From an uncultured archaeon (GTDB lineage Archaea > Iainarchaeota > Iainarchaeia > Iainarchaeales > CSSED10-239): a DNA stretch of 13,362 nt. The translations under genes were made by a program, and so were the position numbers. The DNA is taken from NCBI GenBank assembly GCA_964468895.1, contig CAYXWT010000012.1:3939-17300 (forward strand), given 5' to 3'. Numbering within the stretch: the first letter of the stretch is position 1; every line of letters begins with the position of its first letter. Shown piece by piece: positions 235-13,124 of this stretch. Under the pieces are notes generated by a model. That model was not told the DNA's origin. It made no database searches and was given only the letters and a program-made list of their open reading frames with translations.

Positions 235-975
235 ATGAATTTATTACTTTTTCCATTAATTATAATCTGTTTCATTTTTTTAATTTATTATGGTTATAAG
301 GATTTAAAATTTAGAGAGATAAATATATTACCCTTAATATTCTTTAGTTTGTTTTCTATTATTTATCAAGGTTTATTTATATTTAAAGATAATTTATTTC
401 TTTGGAAAATGTATGGTTTACAAATAGCAATTTCATTAATATTTGTTTTAATAATTTATTTTTTAGGAAGAATATCTACTTTTGCTTATATTGGAGAAGG
501 AGATTTGTATATAATTTTAATGATATCATTTAGTTGTGGTTTTGTAGTGTTATTTTCAGAAATTATTTTTTTAATAGCTTTAATTTTAATGTTATTTATA
601 CCTATATATCTATTTATTAAAAATCTAATTTTTAAAAATATACCTAAGTATTCTTTTTTTAAATCTATAATCATAATGTTTTTAGGCACACCTAAAGATA
701 TTACTAAAATTAATAGTTTTTATACACCTTTAGAAACTCTAAAATTAAAAGATAATAAAATAATTAGAAATATAGATATTACTCCTAATTTTGATTCTGA
801 AAAAGAATTAACAAATATTAAAATAATATCTCAATCTAAAAAAATTGGAAAAATATGGGTTTCACCATTGATTCCTTTTATTATACCAATTATTATTTCA
901 TACGTAATTACAATTATTCTTTTTTTAGGGAAATATTTTGTGGATTTTGGAATATTTATGATTCCTTATATATAA
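235..975 (+). CDS. Peptidase A24 family aspartyl prepilin/preflagellin peptidase (FlaK/PibD/EppA-like, no methyltransferase domain)
   Basis: 246-aa polytopic membrane protein. The first catalytic Asp context is 'YGYKD23LKFREI' (codon 301-303). The second is the GxGD motif 'AYIGEGD90LY' (codon 502-504). The Asp-Asp spacing of about 67 residues is typical of archaeal A24 enzymes. A C-terminal 'VSPLIPFIIP' segment resembles the conserved Pro-rich last TM. A polar insert of roughly 80 aa (nt 619-855) lies between TM blocks. Confidence 0.8.
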   Translation: MNLLLFPLIIICFIFLIYYGYKDLKFREINILPLIFFSLFSIIYQGLFIFKDNLFLWKMYGLQIAISLIFVLIIYFLGRISTFAYIGEGDLYIILMISFSCGFVVLFSEIIFLIALILMLFIPIYLFIKNLIFKNIPKYSFFKSIIIMFLGTPKDITKINSFYTPLETLKLKDNKIIRNIDITPNFDSEKELTNIKIISQSKKIGKIWVSPLIPFIIPIIISYVITIILFLGKYFVDFGIFMIPYI

Positions 976-1037: not shown

Positions 1038-3644
1038 TTGTTTGATTTTAAGAAGAATATGGTAGAACTTAAAAAAATACTTACAAAAATATCTGAAGAT
1101 AAGTCTAGAAGTGAGACTCTAAATAAAAATAAGTTTACTCTATCTAATAAAGTAGATCCTAAATTTAAAAATAAACTTAAAAAATTAGATATATTTAATG
1201 TAAGTGTAAATAAAAAACTTTTAGGTAACTATAAAATAACTGAAAATATCTCTAAAGTATTGAAACCTATTAATAAAAAAACTATTAAAAATGATGTTGA
1301 ACTAGTTGATAATAAGAACATAAATACACATGTTTTAAAAAAGCAAGATGTTTCAAATTCTAAAAATGTTGATATTAACCAAATTATATTTAATAAGACT
1401 TTAAAGAAGTCTACCGAAATTAAAAAAGATAAAGAAAAACAAGTTTATTTTGAATCTATAAGTTTTTTAGATGCTAAAGATAAAGAATCAGAAGATGTTG
1501 TAGATAAGTTATTAGATAAATTAAATAAAAAAACAAGTGAAATAAATGCTGACAAAAGCTTTATTGAAAGAATCTCATTTTTAGATTATGAACCTAAAAT
1601 TAAAAAAATGCATTTTAAAGATTCAAATATAGAGCATTTATATTCAAGGTTTGATGATATTGAAAAATCTTTAAAAAATAAAAATCAGCCGGTATCTAAA
1701 TCTTCTAAAAATAAACCTAAAGCTTTGTTTGTTGAAGATATAAATATTCCTGAAATTATATCTCTAAAAGATGATGTGAAAAATAAATCTGATTTAACAA
1801 GTAAATTTTCATCAAGAGATATAGATAATTTGAAATCTACAGATAAAGATTCTAATTTTACTAATACTAAAAAAGGCCTTGATTTAAATTCAACTATTAA
1901 AAAAAATATTGAAAGTATAGATCATAAAAAAAGACAGAAAAAAGATATTAAAAAATTAGTGGTAGAATTTAGAAATAAAGATTTAGATAAAAGTGCTTTG
2001 AAAAATATAATGCCAGAATCTAAAAATAATTCTGATTTATCTTTAAGTTTATCTAATAAAAATAATTTAGATAATACTAATTTACCAATAAGAAATTCAG
2101 TTAGTTCTAAAGAATCACAAGACTTTATGTTTCCTAAAGATTCATCATCATATGTTTCTTCAAATAAAATTAATAAAGATATTGTGCAAAATAGTTTATC
2201 TTCAAAAATGTTATCTTCTTCTTATGATATTAATTCCGCAAATGGAGAACAATTTTCAAAATTAATTTATTCTAAGTCTATTGATAGTAGTTTTAATATA
2301 GATAAAGTAAATGATAGATATAATATTGATGATTTTACTTATGTTGACATAAGTGTAAAGATAGATAAATTATTTTATGATATTGTTCAACCAAAGTTGG
2401 AACCAAAACAGAAAGAAGTGTTTAAAGATATAAAAAAATTATTTTTAGATTCAATAGACCAAAATTATTATTCCTTTAGAGGAGATAAACATAGTATTTC
2501 TAGATATATTAAAAAAGTTTATGAAGTTGTTCTTAATAAGTTATCTTATAATCTTAGTAAACTTGACAAAAAACTATATTTATTATATATTGAAAATGAT
2601 TTTTCAGGCCTTGGATTTTTGTCAAGTTTATTAAAAGATAGAAATATAATTGAAGTTAGTTGTAGGGGTGCTAACTTGCCTATAACTGTTTATCATGTTA
2701 AATATGGAGTTATAGATACAAATATTGATTTTGAATCTATTGCAAAATTAAATATATTTGTTTTGTCTTTAACTAAATTAATGGGTTTGCATGTAAATTC
2801 AAATGCACCTATAATTAATGGCTATCTTCCGAATGGATATAAGGTAGAAGGTTTATATTCTGTAGGAGATATTAGTAGTAAAGGTTCATCTTTTGTAATA
2901 AAAAAATATCTTGAAGAACCACTGACACCAATATCTTTAATAAATTTAGGTATAGGTATTGTAGATATATTTGCTTATCTTTGGTGGGCAATAAATAATA
3001 ATTATAATTTAGTTGTTAGTGGTATTGCTGATAAAAGTATGATAATAAACACTTTAGCATTATTATATCCTAATAAGCAAATAATAAGTATACAACCTCA
3101 AGATAATCTAAAGCTTCCACAAAAAAATTGGATTAAAAGAATAGTGTACAATAATTCTCAAGTTAATATTAAAACAATTTTAGATCAAAGTATTTCTGAA
3201 AAACCAGATTATTTAATTGTTGAAAACTTTACAAGTGATTTATTTGATACACAGTGGTATAATATTAATTTATTAGATATTAAAAATAATGTTTTGCCAG
3301 AATATATTAACAAAATAAAATTAATAGGTCAAAAAACAATATTAATTAAATTAGATAGATTAAAAACACAATCTAAAGAACAAATACAAATTAAAGAAAT
3401 ATTTGAATATAATCATAATTCTGAAAAGCAAATATTCAATTTAGAATCTAAATCTGAATTTAAAGTAGATTTATTATCTTCTGAAATTAGTATAGTAGAT
3501 TTAAATAAAAGAAAAGAGATTTTGAATTGGATGATTGATTCTAAAGTTATTAATTATAAAGATTTTAATAGTGTTGTTAATGATTATTATATTGATTCTA
3601 AGAAATTACTTACAAAATTAGGAATTATTGATAACAAAAGTTAA
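1038..3644 (+). CDS. FlaI/GspE-superfamily ATPase paralog with degenerate catalytic motifs (probable pseudo-ATPase) and a long low-complexity N-terminal extension
   Basis: 868 aa. The C-terminal half carries FlaI-type landmarks: 'YDIVQPKLEPKQKE', 'GFLSSLLKDRNIIEVSCRG', 'INGYLPNGYKVEG', 'GSSFVIKKY' and 'LPQKNWI'. The Walker A position reads 'VVSGIADKSMI' (3018-3038) instead of GxxGSGKTT. The Asp box reads 'ISIQPQDNL'. The Walker B region reads 'KPDYLIVENF' (3201-3230). No His box is visible, and no other GxxxxGK[ST] occurs in the protein. Residues 1 to about 430 are Lys/Asn/Ser-rich. The track start is TTG at 1038; an in-frame ATG at 1059 is an equally plausible start. Confidence 0.75.
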   Translation: MFDFKKNMVELKKILTKISEDKSRSETLNKNKFTLSNKVDPKFKNKLKKLDIFNVSVNKKLLGNYKITENISKVLKPINKKTIKNDVELVDNKNINTHVLKKQDVSNSKNVDINQIIFNKTLKKSTEIKKDKEKQVYFESISFLDAKDKESEDVVDKLLDKLNKKTSEINADKSFIERISFLDYEPKIKKMHFKDSNIEHLYSRFDDIEKSLKNKNQPVSKSSKNKPKALFVEDINIPEIISLKDDVKNKSDLTSKFSSRDIDNLKSTDKDSNFTNTKKGLDLNSTIKKNIESIDHKKRQKKDIKKLVVEFRNKDLDKSALKNIMPESKNNSDLSLSLSNKNNLDNTNLPIRNSVSSKESQDFMFPKDSSSYVSSNKINKDIVQNSLSSKMLSSSYDINSANGEQFSKLIYSKSIDSSFNIDKVNDRYNIDDFTYVDISVKIDKLFYDIVQPKLEPKQKEVFKDIKKLFLDSIDQNYYSFRGDKHSISRYIKKVYEVVLNKLSYNLSKLDKKLYLLYIENDFSGLGFLSSLLKDRNIIEVSCRGANLPITVYHVKYGVIDTNIDFESIAKLNIFVLSLTKLMGLHVNSNAPIINGYLPNGYKVEGLYSVGDISSKGSSFVIKKYLEEPLTPISLINLGIGIVDIFAYLWWAINNNYNLVVSGIADKSMIINTLALLYPNKQIISIQPQDNLKLPQKNWIKRIVYNNSQVNIKTILDQSISEKPDYLIVENFTSDLFDTQWYNINLLDIKNNVLPEYINKIKLIGQKTILIKLDRLKTQSKEQIQIKEIFEYNHNSEKQIFNLESKSEFKVDLLSSEISIVDLNKRKEILNWMIDSKVINYKDFNSVVNDYYIDSKKLLTKLGIIDNKS

Positions 3645-3674
3645 ATAAAAAAATATAAAAAAAGGTCAAATAAA

Positions 3675-4517
3675 ATGTTTGGAAAATTTATAACTAAAAT
3701 ATCAATTTTTTTATTTTCAGATATTAATAAGATTATTTCTCCCTATTTTAAAAATTTATCTAAAGTTCTGAATTATGCAAATATTGGTGAAGATCTAAAT
3801 TCTTATCTTTGTAATGCTTTGTTTATATCTTTTATTTTTGCAATTGTTTTAGAATTTTTAATGATATTTGTAATGTTAAAAATAAATATATTTTTTACAA
3901 TATTAAGTTTTTTAATAACTATATTTTTATCATTTACTTTTGCTGCAATAATTTTTTTTGTATTTTATAGATATCCTTTTTATTTAATAAATTCTAAAAA
4001 AACAGAAGTTGAATTTGAAATAAAGAATAGTCTAAAACATCTTTCAGCTCTTAGAGATAAAGATTTAACTGTTAGAGATATTTTGTTATTATTGCAAAAA
4101 CTAGAATTTAATTCAATTTTAACAATAGAATGTAAAAAAGTACTTTCAATGTCTAGTATTAATAAAAATTTAAGAGGTACTTTAGAATTTATTTGTAAAA
4201 ATACCTATTCAGAATTAGAATATGATTTTTTTAAAAAATTAATAGATGTTATTGATAATAAGAAAATACTTTCAGATGTTATCACAGAATTTTTAGAAAA
4301 TGTAGAACAAAGTATTAGATCTCAAAATGAACAAAGAAAAACTAAAATTAATTTGTTATTTCAAGTAAACATATTTTTGTTTTTTTTAATATTTATACTA
4401 GTATTTGGTGTGTTTTTAACATCTATATTTATACCTCAAATACACAGTATTTTATTAATGATTGCAATTATTTTTCCTATAATTGAAATAATATTAATTA
4501 TTGTATTAAATAAATAA
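3675..4517 (+). CDS. Single-domain T2SSF (TadB/TadC/FlaJ-half-like) type IV filament platform membrane protein, module 1 first half
   Basis: 280 aa. N-terminal TM helices are followed by a cytoplasmic helical segment of about 120 aa ('EFEIKNSLKHLSALRDKDLTVRDILLLLQ...LRGTLEFICKNTYSELEYDFFKKLIDVIDN...ITEFLENVEQSIRSQNEQRKTKINLL'). C-terminal TM helices complete the protein. This is the T2SSF fold pattern. It lies immediately (30 nt) downstream of an ATPase-family gene. Confidence 0.7.
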   Translation: MFGKFITKISIFLFSDINKIISPYFKNLSKVLNYANIGEDLNSYLCNALFISFIFAIVLEFLMIFVMLKINIFFTILSFLITIFLSFTFAAIIFFVFYRYPFYLINSKKTEVEFEIKNSLKHLSALRDKDLTVRDILLLLQKLEFNSILTIECKKVLSMSSINKNLRGTLEFICKNTYSELEYDFFKKLIDVIDNKKILSDVITEFLENVEQSIRSQNEQRKTKINLLFQVNIFLFFLIFILVFGVFLTSIFIPQIHSILLMIAIIFPIIEIILIIVLNK

Positions 4518-4527
4518 AGATATATTT

Positions 4528-5700
4528 ATGACTAAAATAGACACAACATCAAAAAATAAAATTAATAAGAAGTTTAAAATATTGTTCTTTAAATATGAGT
4601 ATACAATTTTAGATTTCGCAGGTGTTATCTGTGGTTTATTAATAATAGCAATTGCTAATAGATATTTTGTAGGTAGTAAAATATATTTTTTAGTTTTTGT
4701 TTTTGGATTATTAATTGGTTTATTTGGTTTTTTAATAGAATATTTTATAAAAAATGAAAAACGAAAAACTTTAGAAAAAGAATTGGCTTATTTTTTAAAA
4801 GATTTATCTAGAGATTATAAAAAAACCAAAAATCTATCTTTAGCTCTTGCAAATGTTGCTAAATCTAATTTTTATGGTAGTATTAATAGTGAAATAAAAA
4901 TCATTTCTTTAAGAGTATCTTGGGGTGAAGAATTTGAAGATGCTTTGAAGTCTGCAAATCAAAATATTCAAAGTAATGTTATAATTCATACTTTAAAACT
5001 ATTGTCTGCTATGAAATATTCTAAAATTCCTTATTATAGAGTTCTTGAAAATATATCTAAAGATTTGAATGTATTTAATATTGAAAAAAGCAATAAAAAA
5101 TATTTTTTAAGCTTGTTTAGGTTATCTGTTGTTTTTTATTTTATATTTATTTTTGTAATAATATATATAGATTTTATAATTGGTAAAAACTTTTTATGGT
5201 TTTCTGATAGTACTGAACTTACTAGAATATTTTTTGATAATTTTCTACTTTATATTTCATTATTATTATCTTTTTTTACTGCTTTTGTAATGTACACTAT
5301 TAATAATAAAAAGACTATTATCTTACTTAAATATGTAACCATTTTCTTTTTAATAACTATATTTATGTTTCAAATATTTATACCTAAACCTGATGCTAAT
5401 GAAGCTATTACTGATACTATAAATTATTTAGAAAATACAAATAATTTATATGATCAATCTTATTTACAAGAAAACATTTTTATTTCTAAAATAATTTCTA
5501 CAAAATCATTAAGTTCTGCACAAATTATTAATAATAGTTGTGCTAAAGAATTAAATTTCATTTCATTTCATAATTATAACTGTGGTTCTTCTTGTTATGA
5601 ATCTATAATTGTAATTGAAGAACCAACTTTTTTTGATTTTGAAATTCAGAATCTTGAAGATAATAAATTTATAATTTATTATCAAGAATATATAAACTAA
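4528..5700 (+). CDS. Single-domain T2SSF (TadB/TadC-like) platform protein, module 1 second half, with an extra C-terminal extracytoplasmic Cys-containing domain
   Basis: 390 aa. After the TM region comes a helical cytoplasmic segment ('LEKELAYFLKDLSRDY...WGEEFEDALKSANQNIQSNVIIHTLKLLSAMKY...VLENISKDLNVFNIEKSNKK'), then several TM helices. A polar tail of about 105 aa (nt 5383-5697) contains 'NNSCAKELNFISFHNYNCGSSCYES'. The start is 10 nt after the previous stop. Confidence 0.65.
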   Translation: MTKIDTTSKNKINKKFKILFFKYEYTILDFAGVICGLLIIAIANRYFVGSKIYFLVFVFGLLIGLFGFLIEYFIKNEKRKTLEKELAYFLKDLSRDYKKTKNLSLALANVAKSNFYGSINSEIKIISLRVSWGEEFEDALKSANQNIQSNVIIHTLKLLSAMKYSKIPYYRVLENISKDLNVFNIEKSNKKYFLSLFRLSVVFYFIFIFVIIYIDFIIGKNFLWFSDSTELTRIFFDNFLLYISLLLSFFTAFVMYTINNKKTIILLKYVTIFFLITIFMFQIFIPKPDANEAITDTINYLENTNNLYDQSYLQENIFISKIISTKSLSSAQIINNSCAKELNFISFHNYNCGSSCYESIIVIEEPTFFDFEIQNLEDNKFIIYYQEYIN

Positions 5701-5712
5701 TAATTTGGATTT

Positions 5713-6075
5713 GTGATTGTTTTGCTTAAAAATATAACTAAGAATAAAATTATGTCTAAAAATACAAAATTTGCAGATAATTTTTTTAAACGTGCAAAAG
5801 GATTAATGTTTAGTTCTAGAAATAATTTTAATTATTCTTTAATTTTTGATTTAGAAAGAAATACAGTACTTGGAGCTTCTATTCATATGTTTTTTGTGTT
5901 TTTTCCTATAAATTTAATCTTTGTAGATGAAAATAAAAAAATTGTAGAAATTAAAAGGAACTTAAAACCATTTCAAATTTATAATCCTAAACATTATTGT
6001 AGATATATAATTGAATTTCCTATTGAATTTGATATTAAAAGTACAACTGTTTCTGATTTATTATCTTGGAATTAA
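5713..6075 (+). CDS. DUF192 (COG1430-like) family protein
   Basis: 'FADNFFKRAKGLMF...SIHMFFVFFPINLIFVDENKKIVEIKRNLKPFQIYNP...CRYIIEFP' matches the DUF192 pattern (GLM motif, hydrophobic-MxxxxxPhD/N-hhF-hD, P-[WF] loop, final hhE-h-P). The track start is GTG at 5713; the in-frame ATG at 5752 (MSKNTKF...) is the more likely true start. Confidence 0.65.
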   Translation: MIVLLKNITKNKIMSKNTKFADNFFKRAKGLMFSSRNNFNYSLIFDLERNTVLGASIHMFFVFFPINLIFVDENKKIVEIKRNLKPFQIYNPKHYCRYIIEFPIEFDIKSTTVSDLLSWN

Positions 6076-6107
6076 TTTTAAAATCTACAAAAATATTAAT
6101 CTAAAGC

Positions 6108-6115
6108 TTTATATT
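6108..6115 (+). promoter_or_regulatory. Possible internal TATA-like element (TTTATATT) ahead of module 2
   Basis: It lies in the 66-nt spacer between DUF192 and the Fe-S ATPase gene and starts 34 nt upstream of the ATG at 6142, giving a near-leaderless geometry. It could easily be a chance AT-rich match. Confidence 0.2.
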
Positions 6116-6141
6116 CTAATTAATTTTAATTATCTCTATAT

Positions 6142-7932
6142 ATGTATATAGAAACAAAAATTAAAGATCCAAAAGATTTAATTAAATATCTAAATACAAA
6201 TAAAATTAATCTATTTCTTAATTGTCCTTATAACTTTAAAAATAAAGATGCTCTTAATATCTTTAATTGTAAAGATTGTAAAGACCCTAAATGTTTATTA
6301 GCTTGTAAAAAAGGAGCAATATATTTCTCTTCAAAAGGAATACTTTCAATAGATCAAAATCTTTGTAATGGTTGTGGTGATTGTGTTAGAGCTTGTGAAC
6401 ATAATGCAATTATATTAAGAGATAAGAAAGCATATAAGTGTGATATGTGTGCTAATAATTCTTTTTTAATGCCATGTTATTATAATAATAAAGATATTCT
6501 TAATTTTGTATCTTCAGGAAAATTTATAAATGAAATTTATGAGAAATATTTAGGATATATTATAGATTCTGATTTTAAAGTTTTAAAAAATATTAGTAAA
6601 GATTATAAAATTTTAGAAGATACTAACAAAGATTTAAGGTATGTCATTGATCACCCTAATCTTTCTATTCAAGAAATACAAATTATAAATAATATTTTAG
6701 ATCAATATAAATTTAAAGAAATTAATTTTAAAGAAACAAATGATATTTCTAGTACTGTAAAAAAAGATTTAGAAAAAGAACTTGTAAACTACTGTTATAG
6801 TAATTCTATAGAATTAGATCCAGATCAATTTACTTATATTTTAAATTTAACTTATTTAAATTTATATAAATTTGGACCAATTACTAGTTTATTAGAAGAT
6901 AATGATCTTGAAGAAGTAACAATAATCGATATTAATAAACCATTATATGTTTTTCATAGAACTTTTGGATGGTTAAAAACAAATATAATTTATATTTCTG
7001 AAAATATTTTAAAAGATTTAGTTAATAAATTATGTTGGGAATCTAATAAATTTATTACATTAAAAAATCCATTATTAGATTCTACCATATCAGGAAATTC
7101 AAGATTAAATGCAGTAATTAGTCCAATTACATCTACTTGTGCAATAACTATTAGAAAATTTAGTGCTAAAGAATTTACAGTTTATGATTTAATTAAATTA
7201 AAAACAATTTCACTTGAAGCAATTTCTTTTTTATCATTAGTATTTTTAACAGATTCTAATGTTTTTGTAGTTGGTAATACTGGTTCAGGAAAAACAACAA
7301 CTCTAAATGCATTCTTAAAATTAATACCTATTAACGAACGGATTATAACTGTTGAAGAAGTAAGAGAAATAAGAATTCCTCATAAACATAAAGTTAACTT
7401 ACTTGTAAATAAAGATTTAGATATAAATTTAGAAAAGCTTGTTATTAATACTCTTAGAATGAGGCCAGATAGAGTTGTTATTGGAGAAATTAGAAATAAA
7501 GATGAATGTTTTGCATTAGTAGATTCTTTACTTTGTGGTCAAGCTAAAGGCACTTATACTACTTTTCATTCTCAAAGTAGTAGAGATGCAATTCAAAGAT
7601 TAATATCTTATGGAGTTTTAGAAAATGATCTTGGAGCAGTAGATTTAATAGTAAATCAAAGAAGATATAATAAATATAAAAATAATTGTTTTAGAGAATA
7701 TAGAACTGTATTTGAAATTTGTGAAGTTTTATTTGAAAATAATAAAGTTAAACTGAATATACTTTATGAATTTGATGTTTCTAAAAATAAATTAATATCT
7801 AAGAATAATTCTATTAAAATCTTTGAAAAACTAAAAATAACTTATGGGATTAATACTTATAAAGAACTTAATAAGTTATTAAAATCTAAATCTAAAGATA
7901 TATCTAAAAGATTAGAAGAATATTTTAATTAA
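6142..7932 (+). CDS. FlaI/TadA-like type IV filament assembly ATPase with canonical motifs, fused to an N-terminal multi-cysteine ferredoxin-like (4Fe-4S type) domain
   Basis: 596 aa. The N-terminus holds 12 Cys in residues 28-112, including CKDCKDPKCLLAC and the textbook CNGCGDCVRACEHNAI, plus CDMC-x8-C. The ATPase part carries 'YVIDHPNLSIQEIQ', 'GPITSLLEDNDLEEVTI', 'AITIRKF', Walker A 'VVGNTGSGKTTTLNA' (GNTGSGKTT = 7273-7299), Asp box 'RIITVEEVREI', Walker B 'LRMRPDRVVIGEIRNKDE' (7465-7494) and His box 'GTYTTFHS'. Confidence 0.85.
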   Translation: MYIETKIKDPKDLIKYLNTNKINLFLNCPYNFKNKDALNIFNCKDCKDPKCLLACKKGAIYFSSKGILSIDQNLCNGCGDCVRACEHNAIILRDKKAYKCDMCANNSFLMPCYYNNKDILNFVSSGKFINEIYEKYLGYIIDSDFKVLKNISKDYKILEDTNKDLRYVIDHPNLSIQEIQIINNILDQYKFKEINFKETNDISSTVKKDLEKELVNYCYSNSIELDPDQFTYILNLTYLNLYKFGPITSLLEDNDLEEVTIIDINKPLYVFHRTFGWLKTNIIYISENILKDLVNKLCWESNKFITLKNPLLDSTISGNSRLNAVISPITSTCAITIRKFSAKEFTVYDLIKLKTISLEAISFLSLVFLTDSNVFVVGNTGSGKTTTLNAFLKLIPINERIITVEEVREIRIPHKHKVNLLVNKDLDINLEKLVINTLRMRPDRVVIGEIRNKDECFALVDSLLCGQAKGTYTTFHSQSSRDAIQRLISYGVLENDLGAVDLIVNQRRYNKYKNNCFREYRTVFEICEVLFENNKVKLNILYEFDVSKNKLISKNNSIKIFEKLKITYGINTYKELNKLLKSKSKDISKRLEEYFN

Positions 7933-7950
7933 ATAATAATAGTTGTAAAT

Positions 7951-8688
7951 ATGAATTTAAATTTGATTTTTTCTAAGAAAAAAGTAATACTTTATTTAGT
8001 TATATTTTTTAGTTTAGTGTTATTATATGTTTTATTATATTTTGTATTTAACTTAGAAATTAAATTTAGATATTTAATTTACTTTTTTATATTTGTAAGT
8101 GTGTTTTATTTTGCAATATTTTTTTTTATAGACACCTTAAAAAAGCAAAATATTTCTAAAGAAATATCTAGAGAACTACCTTTCTTTTTAAATAATCTTG
8201 GTAATGATTTAGATAAAGGTGTTGATTTTAAAAGAGCATTAGAAAATAGAACTTTAGATAATACTTTATTAAGTAAGAAAATAAAAAAAGCTTTAGAAAA
8301 TACTAATCTTAAGGGTTTTAGTATAAAAGATAGTTTGTTAGAAATAAGTTTTGATAATAGTGAATTAAATGATGTTATTATTCAAATAATAAATATCCTA
8401 GAATTTGGATCTAAAAACAAATCTTATTCTTTAAATATAATATCTGAAAGTCTAGTTAATAAACAAAATCTTAAATTAAAAAACTTTTCTTCTAAGTTAA
8501 ATTTGATTACTTTGATATATATTGTTATTTCTACTATACTTCCTGCGATGATATTGATATTTTTTATAGTTGGAAGTAATTTCTTTGAACTTAGTTTCTC
8601 AAAGTTTAGTATTATTTTTATAATAACTATATTATTCCCTATAATAGATATGTTTTTATTATTTTTTTTAAAAAGTACTATGCCTTAG
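7951..8688 (+). CDS. Single-domain T2SSF (TadB/TadC-like) platform membrane protein, module 2 first half
   Basis: 245 aa. Two N-terminal TM helices are followed by a cytoplasmic helical segment ('ISRELPFFLNNLGNDLDKGVDFKRALEN...KKALENTNLKGFSIKDSLLEIS...VIIQIINILEFGSKN...IISESLVNKQNLKLKNFSSKLNLI'), then C-terminal TM helices. It starts 18 nt after the ATPase stop. Confidence 0.7.
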   Translation: MNLNLIFSKKKVILYLVIFFSLVLLYVLLYFVFNLEIKFRYLIYFFIFVSVFYFAIFFFIDTLKKQNISKEISRELPFFLNNLGNDLDKGVDFKRALENRTLDNTLLSKKIKKALENTNLKGFSIKDSLLEISFDNSELNDVIIQIINILEFGSKNKSYSLNIISESLVNKQNLKLKNFSSKLNLITLIYIVISTILPAMILIFFIVGSNFFELSFSKFSIIFIITILFPIIDMFLLFFLKSTMP

Positions 8689-8721
8689 TTAAAATGTATT
8701 ATTTTAATGATTTGATAAATT

Positions 8722-9537
8722 ATGAATTTAAAAAATAAAAAATTAATCACAATTTATTTTTCGGTAATTGTGATTATAATTTCCTTTGTACTTAATTGGT
8801 CTTTATTTAAGGTGTTTTTAGGTTTAATAATAATTAATTTTTTTTATTATTTAGTATTATATCTTATAGATAAATATAATATTCATCTTCAGAAACAAGA
8901 ATTTGAAAAACAATTAATAAACAATATTTTAAGTATTTGTGCATTGGATAGTGTTAATTTAAAATTAATAATTTATAAATTTGCAAGTTCAAAATCAAAA
9001 TTAATATCTAAGGAATTTTCCTTTATTAAATTTAAATTAAATCAAGGTCATAAAATAGAAGAGTTATTTAAAATTCTTAGAGTTAAATATAATTCTAATA
9101 TTTTAAATAAATTTTTAGATTTATTATTAATATCTAGAACTTTTGGAACAACTTCAAATAAAGATTTTAAATATCTTGTAGAGAACTTCTTAGATTCTAA
9201 AAATATAATTAAGCAAAGAGAATCTTTATTGTTATTACAAAAATATACTATTTTTATGTGCTCAGCTATTGTTTTACCTGCTATTATAAGTGTTGTAATA
9301 GAACTTGTTAAAAGTTTAAATACATCTTTAGACTTTAGTAGTTTTGGTTTTGTTGTATCTAGTAATCTATTTTCTACTGTGTACTATTGTGCTTTAATAT
9401 ATATTTTTGAGTATATTTTAATATCTTCTTTTTATTTAAGTTTTATAGAAAACAATAACTCTAAATTTATTGTGTATTTATTGATATTATTACCAATAAG
9501 TATATTTATATTCTTTATATCTAAGTATATTATATAG
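8722..9537 (+). CDS. Single-domain T2SSF (TadB/TadC-like) platform membrane protein, module 2 second half
   Basis: 271 aa with the same architecture. N-terminal TM helices precede the helical segment 'FEKQLINNILSICAL...EFSFIKFKLNQGHKIEELFKILRVKYNSNILNKFLDLLLISRTFGT...YLVENFLDSKNIIKQRESLLLLQKY', followed by TM helices. The sequence is more diverged, so the call rests largely on architecture and position. Confidence 0.6.
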   Translation: MNLKNKKLITIYFSVIVIIISFVLNWSLFKVFLGLIIINFFYYLVLYLIDKYNIHLQKQEFEKQLINNILSICALDSVNLKLIIYKFASSKSKLISKEFSFIKFKLNQGHKIEELFKILRVKYNSNILNKFLDLLLISRTFGTTSNKDFKYLVENFLDSKNIIKQRESLLLLQKYTIFMCSAIVLPAIISVVIELVKSLNTSLDFSSFGFVVSSNLFSTVYYCALIYIFEYILISSFYLSFIENNNSKFIVYLLILLPISIFIFFISKYII

Positions 9538-9551
9538 GATATAGGTGTAGA

Positions 9552-10175
9552 ATGATGTTTTTTGAAAGTTTGTTTTCTTTTATATTAAGTAATATTAATT
9601 ATTATACAATTTTTATATTAATGATAATAGAAAGTAGTTTTATTCCATTTCCTTCTGAAATTATATTAATACCTGCAGGGGTGTTATGTTCATTAGGAGA
9701 TTTGAATTTATTTTTGTGTGTTTTTTGTGGTGCTTTTGCTTCATTAATAGGTGCTTTAATTAATTATTTTATTGGTAAAAAATTAGGAAGATCTTATATT
9801 TTAAAACATCAAAAATTATTTTTTATAAATAAAAAGCATTTACATAATAGTGAGCATTTTTTTAAAAAATATGGTAACATAACAACTTTTGTAGGCAGAT
9901 TAATTCCTGTAATAAGACAGTATATTTCAATACCAGCAGGTTTTTCAAATATGAATTTATTTAAGTTTTCTATATTTACTTTTTTAGGTGCATTTATTTG
10001 GTCTGGTTTTCTTGTTTTTATAGGTTATTTCTTTGCAGAAAATGCAAATAGTTTATTATCTTTATATAATAATATATTAGTTATAATAATAGCACTATTT
10101 TTAATAGCTATTTTACTTGTAAAAGTTTTTTCAAGGAAATTTAATAAGAATAAATCTAAACAACATATAAAATAA
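9552..10175 (+). CDS. dedA: DedA / VTT (SNARE-associated) family membrane protein
   Basis: 207 aa with both hallmark re-entrant loop motifs: 'MIIESSFIPFPSEIILIPAG' and 'FVGRLIPVIRQYISIPAGF'. The length and TM layout are right for the family. GGTG (9544-9547) lies 4 nt upstream of the ATG as an SD. Confidence 0.85.
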   Translation: MMFFESLFSFILSNINYYTIFILMIIESSFIPFPSEIILIPAGVLCSLGDLNLFLCVFCGAFASLIGALINYFIGKKLGRSYILKHQKLFFINKKHLHNSEHFFKKYGNITTFVGRLIPVIRQYISIPAGFSNMNLFKFSIFTFLGAFIWSGFLVFIGYFFAENANSLLSLYNNILVIIIALFLIAILLVKVFSRKFNKNKSKQHIK

Positions 10176-10252: not shown

Positions 10253-10324
10253 GCCCTAGTAGTCTATCGGTTAGGATGCGACCCTGTCGAGGTTGCGGGG
10301 CGGGTCCGACTCCCGCCTAGGGCG
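10253..10324 (+). tRNA. tRNA-Asp (anticodon GUC), 72 nt, no encoded CCA, no intron
   Basis: Hand-folded cloverleaf.
- Acceptor stem: GCCCTAG (10253-10259) pairs with CTAGGGC (10317-10323); discriminator is G10324.
- D arm: stem GTCT/GGAT, loop ATCGGTTA containing GG.
- Anticodon arm: stem CGACC/GGTTG, loop C-T-GTC-G-A (GTC at 10286-10288).
- Variable region: 4 nt.
- T arm: stem GCGGG/CCCGC, loop TCCGACT.
It is a conspicuous GC-rich island in AT-rich DNA. Confidence 0.9.
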
Positions 10325-10350
10325 CTTATTAAAATTATAGTGATGTTCTT

Positions 10351-10782
10351 ATGCACATATCTAAAATTTGTTTAATATTATTAATATTCTTATTCTTTTT
10401 TAATATAAATTTTATATTTAGTGAAAATCCAATTGTAGAACATGGATATGTTTATTATTATTATGATGATTATACTGATGTTGAACAAACAGAAGTTATA
10501 ACTCATACTTATTTAGATAGTACTTTAATATATTTTCAAACATATGATCAATCTAACAATGTTTATAGAAGTAAAACTGTTAAAGCATACCCTGATAGTA
10601 TTTTAAGTACTATTACATATTATGATTATACTGGAAATATAAACAATACTATTTGTGTACCTGATTCTTTTGATTATATTAATTATGATATTGATTATTA
10701 TGAACCATATAATTATGAATATAATGAAGTGTTTTATGATAATTCTAATGAAAATAGAAATTATTGGAATTATTGGAGATAG
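10351..10782 (+). CDS. Small secreted Tyr/Asp/Asn-rich protein of unknown function (possible YD-repeat-like beta-hairpins)
   Basis: 143 aa. The N-terminal signal-peptide-like segment is MHISKICLILLIFLFFFNINFIFS|ENP. I count about 24 Tyr, including 'GYVYYYYDDY', 'TYYDYTGNI' and 'DYINYDIDYYEPYNYEYNEVFYD'. A weak SD-like GTGAT lies upstream. Confidence 0.55.
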   Translation: MHISKICLILLIFLFFFNINFIFSENPIVEHGYVYYYYDDYTDVEQTEVITHTYLDSTLIYFQTYDQSNNVYRSKTVKAYPDSILSTITYYDYTGNINNTICVPDSFDYINYDIDYYEPYNYEYNEVFYDNSNENRNYWNYWR

Positions 10783-11018: not shown

Positions 11019-13124
11019 ATGAACAAAAATTTAATTAAAACAACTAATGGAATTTTACTTGTTTTTGTTGTTATGGCAAGTGTTCTGTTACTAAGTACTA
11101 CTATTTTTGCTTCTGAAAGTGATGATAGTTTAGAATTTGTAAATTTACAAATTAATGGGAATTCAAATATAAACGAAACAGTATTTAATGAAGATATGGT
11201 TTTAACAACTTCAGTAAATACAAATTTAAATAAAAACGATATTCAATTTATTGGTTATTTTATGATAGCTAATAATAATGGTATTTTGCCACTTTCAACT
11301 TTTGAATTTGTTATAGATAATACTGCTGCAATGAATTCAGATGGTATGAGAACATATTACCTTAAGGCTAATTTTAGTAGTTCTGAACTAAAACCAATAA
11401 TAGCTCAAGTTCAAGAAATACTTAATACAAATTATTCTCCAGAAAACGGAGATCAATTAAAAATAAAATTAGATGCAATTGTAGGTAGTGGTAATTCTCA
11501 GGAATTATTTACAAACAATCCATATCCAGAAATATCATATAATAGTATATATGATGAACCTCAAGTTATACCTGAAACAAATTATTATATTTCAGATCTA
11601 AAACAAATAATTAATGGAACTTCTACTTATAATAATTACAAATATACTTTAAATCACCCAAATAATTATCCTTTTGAATTTACATTTCAATCTAATGTAG
11701 AGTCACAAGATGTTATTTTTAAATTAGTTTTAGATGATGGTGATGATCAAACACTTTTATTTAATCAAAAAGGTGATTATATAAAAACAGCTCAACCAAT
11801 AACTCTTTCAACAGCTAGTGGAATAACAAGTGATCCTATAGCTTATAATTATAAGTATAAATTTAATTTAACTGATGATATTTTTACATCTATTGATGAT
11901 TATAAATTAGTTAGTGGAAATTATGATTTATATTTAACAGTTTCTCAAGTTAAAGCTTCACAAGGTTCAGTTACACAAGGTGTAGAAACAAGTATTCCTA
12001 GAGAAGATATTGTTATAGATTTTGAATATTCAAATAAAATTAATACTCTTCCTGAAATTGTTTCTTACAAAGCTGAAAATTTAACTATAAATGTTTCATC
12101 AGTTGATAATGTGAACGAAATGGATGATGGGTATTATGTTGTAGAATTAGGTATATATGATTCTTTAAATTTAACACTTAGTTACACTGTTGAAGGTTTA
12201 GAAGATGTTGAATTAGCTAATGCTGTATTTTTAAAATATAAAAATGATGCTGCTATATTTTATCCTGTTTTAAGATCTAAACATTGTGATAGTAGTAAAT
12301 GTGCTTATACTTATCAAGTAAGTATATATAAGTCAGTTATAGATGATAAACCTTATAAACTTGAATATAGAGTTTATTCTGCAAATGCTAGAAATCCAAA
12401 TTTAAATTATGCCACTTCAACTAATAAAGTGACTTCAACAAGATCATATAGTTCTGAAGATATAAAAGTTGTATTAAGTAATGAGTCACAAGTTTTGAAA
12501 ATACCTATTGATCATATAATTAGTTTCTATAATGATAATAGTTCAAAACTAGTTCAATATAAAACTTCAATTTCTCAAAAAAATTCTCCAACACCTATAA
12601 TTGGAATAGAACCTGAATTAGAACAAAATGTTGACAGTGATAATATAGTCAGAGATACAGATGATGAAACAAATTCTGAAGGAGAAATGGCTCAAGATTT
12701 TCAAAATAACAAAGTAGCTATAGAAAAAAGTCTTAGTGGTAAGAATGTTTCAAGTGGTATTAGTTACCCTAAAGTAAGTACTAGTACAAATAATATGTAT
12801 GCTCAAAGAGATTATTATTTAGAAAAGTTAAGTCCTATTTTAAAACAAAATGGTGTTAACTACAAATATATTACTTCTATATCTCTAAAAGATACAGGTG
12901 ATGAAGAAACAACAACATATATTTTAGAGGTTAACGAACCAAAAAAGTTTTTAGGAATTTTTAAAATTGGTGAAAGAACATATACTAAAGAAGTATCTAT
13001 TCCTACTAAAGATTTAATAAATTTAGATCTACAGTATAATAGAGCCAAGCCAAAACCTAAAATACTTACTGAAATAAAGAGTGAAGCAGTTAGTCAAACA
13101 GAATCTGATAATAGTAACAATTAA
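11019..13124 (+). CDS. Large secreted or surface protein of unknown function (candidate adhesin or surface-layer component), N-terminal signal sequence, no C-terminal anchor
   Basis: 701 aa. The N-terminus is MNKNLIKTTNG-ILLVFVVMASVLLLSTTIFA|SESDD (11019-11111). The mature part is polar and rich in Asn/Ser/Thr/Tyr, with alternating beta-strand-like patterns and many N-x-S/T sequons. It has only two Cys (HCDSSKC). An acidic linker 'DSDNIVRDTDDETNSEGE' is present. The C-terminal segment 'TTTYILEVNEPKKFLGIFKIGERTYTKEVSI' is faintly reminiscent of PepSY-like motifs (tentative). No terminal TM helix or sorting signal was seen. Confidence 0.75.
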   Translation: MNKNLIKTTNGILLVFVVMASVLLLSTTIFASESDDSLEFVNLQINGNSNINETVFNEDMVLTTSVNTNLNKNDIQFIGYFMIANNNGILPLSTFEFVIDNTAAMNSDGMRTYYLKANFSSSELKPIIAQVQEILNTNYSPENGDQLKIKLDAIVGSGNSQELFTNNPYPEISYNSIYDEPQVIPETNYYISDLKQIINGTSTYNNYKYTLNHPNNYPFEFTFQSNVESQDVIFKLVLDDGDDQTLLFNQKGDYIKTAQPITLSTASGITSDPIAYNYKYKFNLTDDIFTSIDDYKLVSGNYDLYLTVSQVKASQGSVTQGVETSIPREDIVIDFEYSNKINTLPEIVSYKAENLTINVSSVDNVNEMDDGYYVVELGIYDSLNLTLSYTVEGLEDVELANAVFLKYKNDAAIFYPVLRSKHCDSSKCAYTYQVSIYKSVIDDKPYKLEYRVYSANARNPNLNYATSTNKVTSTRSYSSEDIKVVLSNESQVLKIPIDHIISFYNDNSSKLVQYKTSISQKNSPTPIIGIEPELEQNVDSDNIVRDTDDETNSEGEMAQDFQNNKVAIEKSLSGKNVSSGISYPKVSTSTNNMYAQRDYYLEKLSPILKQNGVNYKYITSISLKDTGDEETTTYILEVNEPKKFLGIFKIGERTYTKEVSIPTKDLINLDLQYNRAKPKPKILTEIKSEAVSQTESDNSNN

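Follow-up and report, generated by a model that had tools for sequence, protein, structure and literature searches.

Putative paralogous type IV filament modules in Iainarchaeota, one with an apparently inactive ATPase and one with an iron-sulfur ATPase

A 13,362-nucleotide stretch of DNA from an uncultured archaeon (GenBank assembly GCA_964468895.1, contig CAYXWT010000012.1, positions 3,939 to 17,300 of the forward strand; this whole stretch is the window) is best read from its sequence as carrying two ancient paralogous Epd/Tad-like type IV filament modules of the Iainarchaeota (Diapherotrites, DPANN). The window has a G+C content of approximately 20% and its large open reading frames (ORFs) are all on the plus strand, where they encode, in this order, an A24 peptidase (pep), a pseudo-ATPase (pATP), two membrane proteins of the T2SSF family (Ta and Tb), a DUF192 protein, an ATPase with an iron-sulfur (Fe-S) domain (FeSATP, 6142-7932), two further T2SSF proteins (Tc and Td) and a DedA/VTT-family protein. 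The spacers from pep to the VTT gene are 62 (83 if counted from the ATG at 1059), 30, 10, 12, 66, 18, 33 and 14 nucleotides. We refer to pep-pATP-Ta-Tb-DUF192 as module 1 and to FeSATP-Tc-Td (plus VTT) as module 2. A preliminary description of the window had given this order as far as Td, with the strand and spacing, with which the ORF listing and profile searches agree, and had seen in it two triplets of an ATPase and a split platform, which domain matches and orthologue families bear out.

Type IV filament motors are thought to run by ATP-driven conformational cycling of a hexamer against a platform protein. The ATPase of module 1 appears to have lost the means for such cycling, and the ATPase of module 2 appears to have kept them. 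The reading that we favour, with a probability of about 0.45, is that a hexamer of the dead pATP together with Ta and Tb would act as a non-catalytic platform for peptidase-processed substrates and would depend on FeSATP for work.

A pilus ATPase family without a P-loop

Over its C-terminal 468 residues pATP is approximately 22% identical to FeSATP, and the catalytic motifs of the active ATPases are replaced or deleted. In the multiple alignment the Walker A motif, G(N/G)TGSGKT(T/S) in active ATPases, is of the SGIADKS-, TGDCDMS- or TGG-DS-type in the pATP family, with a deletion of 2-3 residues in the region and no conserved lysine. The pattern GxxxxGK[ST] is absent from all of the 26 family sequences checked and present in nearly all of the next 130 matches. 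The Asp box changes from IEDT in active ATPases to IQPQ or VQAY in the pATP family, and Walker B from GE(V/I)RG to (E/D)(N/E)F; in the Walker B stretch of pATP itself, PDYLIVENF, one acidic residue is kept and the glycine and arginine are gone. The His-box segment is deleted across the family. With the Walker A lysine, the Asp-box acids and the His box lost in all family members, pATP is predicted to be catalytically dead, as the preliminary description had proposed for the first ATPase.

The fold, by comparison, seems to have been kept. The Pfam profile PF00437 (T2SSE) gives no match to pATP at E values up to 1, and NCBIfam FlaI reaches 120 bits, where the cut-off is 550, with a weak PilB3_C tail. 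Searched against the RCSB Protein Data Bank (PDB), a profile of the pATP family matches afGspE (2OAP) at 2.1e-49 and FlaI (4II7) at 4.8e-33. An AlphaFold2 model of the pATP domain, made from the family alignment, has a mean pLDDT of 87 and a pTM of 0.83, and Foldseek aligns it with 2OAP over the whole length (E 6.9e-32, TMq 0.75) and with FlaI at a TMq of 0.67. As modelled, pATP would retain the complete two-domain fold of the afGspE/FlaI type.

Selection on this domain was estimated from the ratio of nonsynonymous to synonymous substitution rates (dN/dS) between the window and its close relative, locus L001. The ratio is 0.188 for the dead domain of pATP and 0.186 for FeSATP, and 0.17-0.28 across Ta, Tb, Tc, Td, pep and DUF192, which puts the pATP domain under the same purifying selection as the live motor. 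Dozens of residues in the domain are invariant across the family. Strong selection thus preserves a paralogue lacking a P-loop along with its own split platform, the peptidase and, in relatives, adhesin-type pilins. This implies another role for the ATPase fold in these machines apart from catalysis, which could be that of a scaffold, a substrate selector, a brake or an adaptor for another motor. A naturally locked complex of ATPase and platform could also suit structural work on the poorly resolved interface between motor and platform.

The N-terminal half of pATP evolves almost neutrally (dN/dS 0.75) and varies in length, family members having 772-1132 residues with all of the variation in this region, which is probably a disordered extension. 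The alignment shows conserved islets within it (SFL.D.P..KI, LY.KID, IP.I..KDD, YILP.D), and a tandem repeat search of this half returned only short, low-score A-rich repeats. The pATP ORF (1038-3644) reaches upstream to a TTG at 1038, giving a length of 861-868 residues; translation probably begins at the ATG at 1059, as P0136, the copy in the database, has 861 residues. The pATP of Candidatus Forterrea multitransposorum (L019, 8039-11389) has 1116 residues in total. The one mention in the paper on the Forterrea genome is of a "secretion-related ATPase" with a region that contains repeats and is prone to misassembly; this may be the pATP gene.

An exhaustive HMMER scan of 1.84 billion cluster representatives delimits the pATP family as 16 clusters at 50% identity (E <=1e-127), and the matches resume only at E 7e-56. 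Among active relatives the nearest share 27-35% identity with pATP. One active relative, P0151 from another Diapherotrites metagenome-assembled genome (MAG), has 892 residues, 33% identity, a long N-terminal extension and an intact Walker A. Another FlaI-like protein, P0150 (NCBI MFH1751976.1, 824 residues, 32% identity), is without Walker A, Asp box and His box and may mark a second dead lineage, so that the loss of catalysis may be older or may have occurred more than once. Two related active ATPases, P0210 and P0239, carry large intein-like insertions exactly within Walker A (GK-C...HN-T). Literature searches found no paper on a pseudo-ATPase or on Walker-A-less PilB paralogues, and as far as we could find a putative pseudo-enzyme of the PilB/FlaI family with its own platform pair is new.

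An iron-sulfur ATPase as the motor of module 2

FeSATP scores 119.6 bits against PF00437, for which the cut-off is 24.9, and matches NCBIfam FlaI at 1.6e-53; its matches among PDB sequences are 2OAP (7.6e-42), FlaI (3e-32) and CpaF (1.9e-29). The catalytic motifs are here conserved in 99 homologues: GNTGSGKTT (Walker A), IITVEEVRE (Asp box), RPDRVVIGEIR (Walker B) and TFH (His box). On these motifs FeSATP is predicted to be a catalytically competent motor of the PilB/FlaI type. Its score against the profile for the bindosome ATPase BasE (NCBIfam NF053672) is 107 bits, well below the cut-off of 1000.

The N-terminal domain was described at the outset as redox-type, and it does match three ferredoxin profiles above gathering: Fer4_6 (7.6e-7, 29.2 vs 25 bits), Fer4_11 (5e-6, 27.1 vs 26.2 bits) and Fer4 (5.3e-6, 26.5 vs 21.1 bits). 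It holds 12 cysteines, at residues 28, 43, 46, 51, 55, 75, 78, 81, 85, 100, 103 and 112, each at least 93% conserved in the 99 homologues. Eight of them form the cluster motifs C75-x2-C78-x2-C81-x3-C85 and C43-x2-C46-x4-C51-x3-C55, and C28, C100, C103 and C112 make up a third set of four; together the 12 would be enough for up to three predicted [4Fe-4S] clusters. Fer4 domains are present in most of the best 120 database matches of FeSATP, of which the named ones are from Iainarchaeum or Diapherotrites MAGs, and the poly-ferredoxin domain recurs in at least 98 related proteins from archaea of the Iainarchaeota type. No paper on Fe-S domains of DPANN pilus ATPases came up in literature searches, and a conserved poly-ferredoxin motor is, as far as we found, also undescribed. 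A near-invariant domain of 12 cysteines in approximately 100 related DPANN proteins raises the idea that pilus assembly is tied to redox state in these archaea, which are anaerobic and depend on a host.

Four single-domain platform proteins

The Pfam profile for T2SSF (PF00482) has a gathering cut-off of 25.2 bits. The window copies of Ta (24.2 bits, residues 120-246), Tb (17.5 bits) and Tc (21.1 bits, residues 79-203) all fall below it, the first only just, and the window copy of Td has no Pfam match; the four were therefore tested as families of orthologues. At this level PF00482 matches 15 of the 16 Tb orthologues (best 2e-8) and four of the six Td orthologues (best 2e-7). Ta matches NCBIfam ArlJ/FlaJ at 5.1e-8 over profile positions 3-243 of 555, from which it is probably the equivalent of the N-terminal half of FlaJ. 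Comparison by hhalign joins Ta with Tc (E 6.2e-6, probability 85%) and Tc with Td (E 3.5e-5); between Tb and Td the match is weak and not significant (E 0.009, probability 4.5%), and between Ta and Tb there is nothing, so the assignment of Tb and Td rests on the Pfam matches of their orthologues. Neither Tb nor Td matched any PDB chain in a sequence-profile search. The four membrane proteins can thus be called T2SSF proteins, as proposed, at the level of families, though not from the window copies by the gathering cut-off. With the two ATPases only approximately 20% identical, Ta and Tc joined at E 6e-6 and Tb and Td barely matching, the duplication is also as ancient as the preliminary description took it to be.

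Each of the four proteins has one T2SSF stretch and a length of 245-390 residues. Ta is a separate gene in all 17 orthologues, and the split genes are unfused in each of the more than 30 loci of module 1 and of the 12 further loci of module 2. Because they are separate in every relative examined, the split platform is not a frameshift artefact, and the halves that had been read as unfused in the window are unfused in its relatives too. Tb has an extra C-terminal domain of approximately 100 residues, probably extracellular, in which C352 and C356 are nearly invariant. A 494-residue "fusion" of T2SSF and DUF192 called in L007 was rejected, since the gene caller had read through an in-frame TGA between two ORFs; at 14393-14401 of this locus Tb and DUF192 lie in one frame with only TGA-TAT between them.

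Distribution and linkage of the two modules

The two modules touch only in the window and in L001, an independent JGI contig of approximately 82% amino-acid identity with an identical gene order; as this is an independent assembly, the adjacency is not an assembly artefact. Module 1 is present in the genomes of 16 GTDB species, among them the complete one of Candidatus Forterrea multitransposorum (Iainarchaeota), and on 18 metagenome contigs; it is unbroken in L006-L008. Module 2 lies directly downstream of it in none of these 16 genomes and 18 metagenome loci, and the idea of the double module as a conserved synteny has to be given up. Annotation of the relative loci (more than 30) by phmmer showed no active T2SSE gene closer than 10 kb to module 1. 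In the MAG DAOMZT01 (L021, 8834-11757) pep, pATP and DUF192 are present, Ta and Tb are missing and there is a 72-nucleotide gap between, which could be a deletion or a misassembly.

Module 2 occurs without module 1 attached in L002-L005, L025, L026 and L048. Tc follows FeSATP in all of these and in L001, and the position of Td is constant in all module 2 loci. Two Iainarchaeum MAGs have an extra 327-residue KKEDL-repeat protein between FeSATP and Tc (L002/L003, 11880-12872). The VTT gene directly follows Td in L001, L002-L005, L025 and L026, and in L048 it lies 2.9 kb further downstream. The more distant outgroups L046 and L047, which have FeSATP and two T2SSF genes, lack it. In the window the VTT product also matches NCBIfam UptA (1e-34), a match below the cut-off for that family.

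Both modules are present in all four lineages in which this could be checked, namely the window, L001, L025/Forterrea and PWLL01. The MAG PWLL01 has module 1 on contig 32 (L009) and module 2 on contig 51 (L048). In L025 (NPID01) both are on one contig and on the same strand, 9.8 kb apart: the end of module 1 (DUF192) is followed by a PKD pilin-like gene, L16, a methyltransferase, NDK and further genes, then by PCC and PRPP synthase on the opposite strand, and then by module 2. With a nucleotide identity of 93-95%, L025 overlaps L019, the locus on the Forterrea chromosome. That chromosome was read only up to the genes that precede module 2 in L025, and it very probably shares the 10-kb layout of two modules.

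A neighbour-joining (NJ) tree of the Fe-S ATPases, rooted with distant homologues, nests the window and L001 inside the clade with the PWLL01 group as their sister; the flanking lineages share a PCC-PRPPS-FeSATP junction. Since the modules are separated in the lineages around that of the window and unlinked in its sister, the tandem layout is taken as derived, and by parsimony the contact of the modules would be a recent rearrangement. In L001, moreover, NDK has moved to a place upstream of pep. A DUF192 gene beside FeSATP in L047 had suggested the reverse, a tandem layout that is ancestral, which was rejected on the nesting in the NJ tree and the unlinked sister. The L047 arrangement leaves a small doubt on the polarity and suggests an old link between DUF192 and pili.

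DUF192 as part of module 1

The DUF192 gene, which the preliminary description listed between the two triplets, is no neutral spacer and proves to be an invariant member of module 1: it directly follows Tb in every complete copy and is the last invariant gene. The window protein scores 51.5 bits against a cut-off of 27, matches NCBIfam PRK03760 at 9.6e-31 and has no signal peptide; a Haloferax DUF192 protein is a secreted glycoprotein (PMC8241124). Against the PDB its only match is 3M7A, an uncharacterised protein, at E 0.12. The same neighbourhood recurs in an unrelated locus of 45% G+C (L027, 8001-11953), where a TadZ-like gene, an active ATPase and two T2SSF genes are followed by DUF192, and in L047 (9105-13495), where DUF192 lies just upstream of the Fe-S ATPase module. 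Both loci are outside the pseudo-ATPase clade, and the recurrence may give DUF192 its first functional context. A paper linking DUF192 with pili did not turn up in literature searches; its repeated position beside strings of an ATPase and two T2SSF genes would be a first functional lead for a widespread domain.

The peptidase and its candidate substrates

The peptidase passes the gathering cut-off of Arc_PepC_II (44.4 vs 29.9 bits). It matches NCBIfam FlaK at 1.3e-9 over residues 10-229, and is not a FlaK equivalog because the score is 38 bits and the equivalog cut-off 330. Among 26 orthologues the conservation of the catalytic Asp pair (D23 and G87-E88-G89-D90) is at least 95%. Wherever a locus extends far enough, pep is directly upstream of pATP. 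It does stand ahead of both modules in the window, as the preliminary description had it, but it is an integral and invariant part of module 1 and not a leader for both.

Candidate substrates were sought by a class-III-like motif of [KR][GSA], then [IVL][ST]x[IVL], then approximately 24 hydrophobic residues. It occurs in 22 of the 1199 ORFs of all fetched loci, and all 22 are directly downstream of the DUF192 gene of module 1, with none near module 2 and none in the window. The N-termini of these candidates have the form K-K-[SGA]/[IV]-S-x-I-I, the slash marking the candidate cleavage site. The large motif-bearing proteins carry PKD, Laminin_G_3, Big_12 and CHB_HEX_C/Fn3_assoc domains and so look like adhesin-type pilins. 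Pfam Pilin_N gave only one weak match to the candidates (E 0.027), and their class-III assignment is for that reason motif-based. By this, pep may cleave class III signal peptides, its candidate substrates adjoining module 1 in many of the relatives but not in the window. Small ORFs that follow the platform genes in L046, L047 and L048 were considered as Flp-like pilins and rejected, as none has a class-III N-terminus.

Features of the window

The positions of the features are given in Table 1. The tRNA gene is a G+C-rich island in the window and gives rise to a spurious minus-strand ORF of 30 residues. It is followed on the plus strand by a secreted-looking protein of 143 residues (10351-10782), rich in Tyr, Asn and Asp, with no Pfam domain and no phmmer match in the fetched loci, and by a protein of 701 residues (11019-13124) with a Sec-like signal peptide and no Pfam domain. 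The latter is kept only in L001 (55% identity, dN/dS 0.65); in its place the relatives have another unannotated secreted protein and then a TrmB/HTH gene.

Upstream of pep, several relatives share a block of TrkH-TrkA, NMD3 (minus strand), a beta-CASP nuclease (minus strand), an ATP-grasp protein of approximately 205 residues and an unannotated protein of approximately 311 residues. This block, from TrkH to the 311-residue protein, is conserved immediately before pep in L007, L008, L010-L015, L022, L029 and L043. It is absent from the window and from L001, where NDK precedes pep.

Table 1. Positions in the window of the genes and domains discussed, with the match or observation that supports each.
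Feature	Position	Strand	Evidence
pep, archaeal A24 prepilin/preflagellin-type peptidase, first gene of module 1	235-975	+	Arc_PepC_II 2.5e-11
pATP N-terminal half, Lys/Asn/Ser-rich extension	1059-2237	+	no credible Pfam domain
pATP C-terminal half: afGspE/FlaI-type N-domain, RecA-like C-domain, PilB3_C-like tail	2238-3644	+	NCBIfam FlaI 9.5e-35
Ta, single-domain T2SSF, module 1	3675-4517	+	T2SSF 3.6e-5
Tb, second single-domain T2SSF, module 1	4528-5700	+	T2SSF 4.3e-3
DUF192 (COG1430), last gene of module 1	5713-6075	+	Pfam DUF192 1.1e-13
FeSATP poly-ferredoxin N-terminal domain	6142-6480	+	Fer4_6, Fer4_11, Fer4
FeSATP ATPase body of FlaI/GspE/CpaF type, predicted motor of module 2	6481-7932	+	T2SSE 1.7e-34
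Tc, first single-domain T2SSF, module 2	7951-8688	+	T2SSF 3.2e-4
Td, second single-domain T2SSF, module 2	8722-9537	+	Pfam matches of orthologues; position
DedA/VTT-family membrane protein (UptA-like)	9552-10175	+	VTT_dom 2.3e-24
tRNA-Asp (GTC)	10253-10325	+	between DedA gene and next ORF

A model for the two modules and its alternatives

In the model that we prefer, pep would trim prepilin-like substrates, and Ta and Tb, with a ring of dead ATPase docked beneath them, would form a non-catalytic platform on which those substrates are assembled or anchored. Work would come from FeSATP, the only live motor of its kind seen at these loci, acting either on its own Tc/Td platform or directly with pATP in mixed or stacked rings. 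The Fe-S domain would couple filament assembly to the redox or oxygen state of the cell, serving as a hypothetical redox gate. The model draws on the combination of catalytic death, retained fold and purifying selection equal to that of FeSATP in pATP, and on the surroundings of module 1, which include no live ATPase, a peptidase with a conserved Asp pair and the motif-bearing ORFs. It draws further on the co-occurrence of the modules, the intact motor motifs of FeSATP and the precedent of paralogous modules in other archaea.

Several points weigh against this model. The window holds no pilin gene, and in the relatives the class-III assignment comes from an N-terminal motif, with Pilin_N reaching only E 0.027. 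The step that links the modules is inferred, and the role given to the Fe-S domain is taken from domain identity alone. The modules are unlinked in most relatives, which also fits independent functions, and co-occurrence was checked in four genomes or lineages only. A third active ATPase elsewhere in the genome may also serve module 1.

The main rival is one that we regard as possible but on balance doubtful. It holds that the modules are two independent machines, module 2 a dynamic pilus and module 1 a static device that uses no ATP, in which the dead ring would lock Ta and Tb as a permanent anchor or display site for adhesin-pilins, by analogy more like a bindosome-type surface layer than a filament. 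Separate conservation of mostly unlinked modules speaks for it, as does the linkage of the pilin-like adhesins and the peptidase to module 1 only; the strong conservation of the pATP domain fits a structural role, and FeSATP is distantly similar to BasE, such display systems using this toolkit. However, we know of no characterised type IV filament or bindosome system that does without an active ATPase, the modules co-occur in four of the four genomes that could be checked, and in Forterrea-type genomes they are on the same strand and within 10 kb of each other.

It is improbable that some other active ATPase of the PilB/FlaI type powers module 1, with pATP as its regulatory or adaptor paralogue and the Fe-S module unrelated. 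Active relatives with long N-termini do exist in other Diapherotrites, P0151 among them, and archaeal genomes often carry several paralogues of ATPase and platform (PMC4858521), but no such active ATPase gene lies within 10 kb of module 1 in the more than 30 loci, the genomes are very small (0.84 Mb in Forterrea), and the nearest matches include none from the pATP-bearing clade, taxonomy being known for few of them only. That module 1 is a decaying pilus remnant, as loss of all catalytic motifs in the manner of a pseudogene and the missing Ta and Tb of L021 might suggest, or that the tandem layout is an assembly chimera, is effectively refuted by ORFs that are intact in at least 30 loci and at least 16 species, by dN/dS values of 0.19 for the dead domain and 0.19-0.28 for Ta, Tb and DUF192, by the dozens of invariant residues and by the same tandem order in the independent JGI assembly at approximately 82% identity.

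The non-catalytic platform served by FeSATP can be taken one step further, to a full division of labour, which as a whole we consider unlikely. Here a dead hexamer, permanently free of nucleotide, and its TadB/TadC-like pair would select and hold large adhesin-pilins that the neighbouring peptidase has processed. A single redox-sensing Fe-S motor would power the machine in trans, perhaps by way of mixed or stacked rings. If true, this would be the first PilB/FlaI pseudo-enzyme with a dedicated platform, and would offer episymbiotic DPANN cells a route by which to gate attachment to the host by redox state.

Comparison with known systems

Fission of the platform defines the Epd-like/Tad clade (Denise et al. 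2019, PMC6668835), which agrees with what the preliminary description had said of Tad and Epd. Loci of euryarchaeal clade 2, however, also commonly carry two tadC-like genes (Makarova et al. 2016, PMC4858521), and the arrangement is therefore less exotic for archaea than was implied. As in the Epd system of Methanococcus maripaludis and in Tad/Flp, the window has an ATPase gene followed by two one-domain T2SSF genes and a dedicated A24 peptidase, and locus L027 has a TadZ-like gene, ATPase, two T2SSF genes and DUF192 together. Unlike Tad and Epd, the window is without a TadZ/FleN-type ATPase, a short Flp-type pilin and a secretin, its peptidase is of the FlaK/Arc_PepC_II type, and one of its ATPases is predicted to be dead and the other carries a poly-ferredoxin. 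Neither TadZ/FleN-type ATPases nor Flp-type pilins were found in the window or in the flanks of its relatives, a TadZ-like gene occurring only in the distant L027. With TadZ, Flp-type pilins and a phylogenetic placement missing, we do not file the locus as Tad or Epd.

The presence of several modules of ATPase and platform in one genome recalls the PilB-PilC systems of Haloferax volcanii and the Euryarchaeota. Paralogous PilB-PilC modules that draw on common pilins and a single peptidase are known from Haloferax and other archaea (available part of PMC6491452; PMC4858521), and Aciduliprofundum has two ATPases in one locus (PMC4858521). A likeness to clade 2 of Makarova et al. is that both window ATPases match afGspE (2OAP) best and that pATP has a weak PilB3_C tail. 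The haloarchaeal systems differ in that both paralogous ATPases are treated there as working, with no dead paralogue reported in PMC4858521 or in the available part of PMC6491452. Pilus ATPases of subclade 4F have variable, Cys-rich N-terminal domains that possibly form disulfides (PMC4858521); FeSATP shares with them an extra Cys-rich N-terminus, which in its case is canonical Fer4 with 12 near-invariant cysteines. The BasEF system of Sulfolobus offers an analogy in its large class-III surface proteins, PilB/PilC-type pair and general prepilin peptidase. The window differs from it in lacking Bas pilin-like genes, and module 1 in its split platform and apparently dead ATPase.

The closest parallels to a dependent or non-catalytic role for pATP are TadZ, which has an atypical Walker A and low activity (PMC6668835), and PilU, which according to the available part of PMC6762196 works only with PilT. 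Both resemble pATP as ATPase-fold proteins that serve as scaffold, hub or dependent partner of a true motor. They are unlike it in that TadZ comes from a different P-loop family (FleN/MinD) and PilU is an active enzyme, while pATP is a full paralogue of the PilB/FlaI family that has no P-loop and is encoded with its own platform pair.

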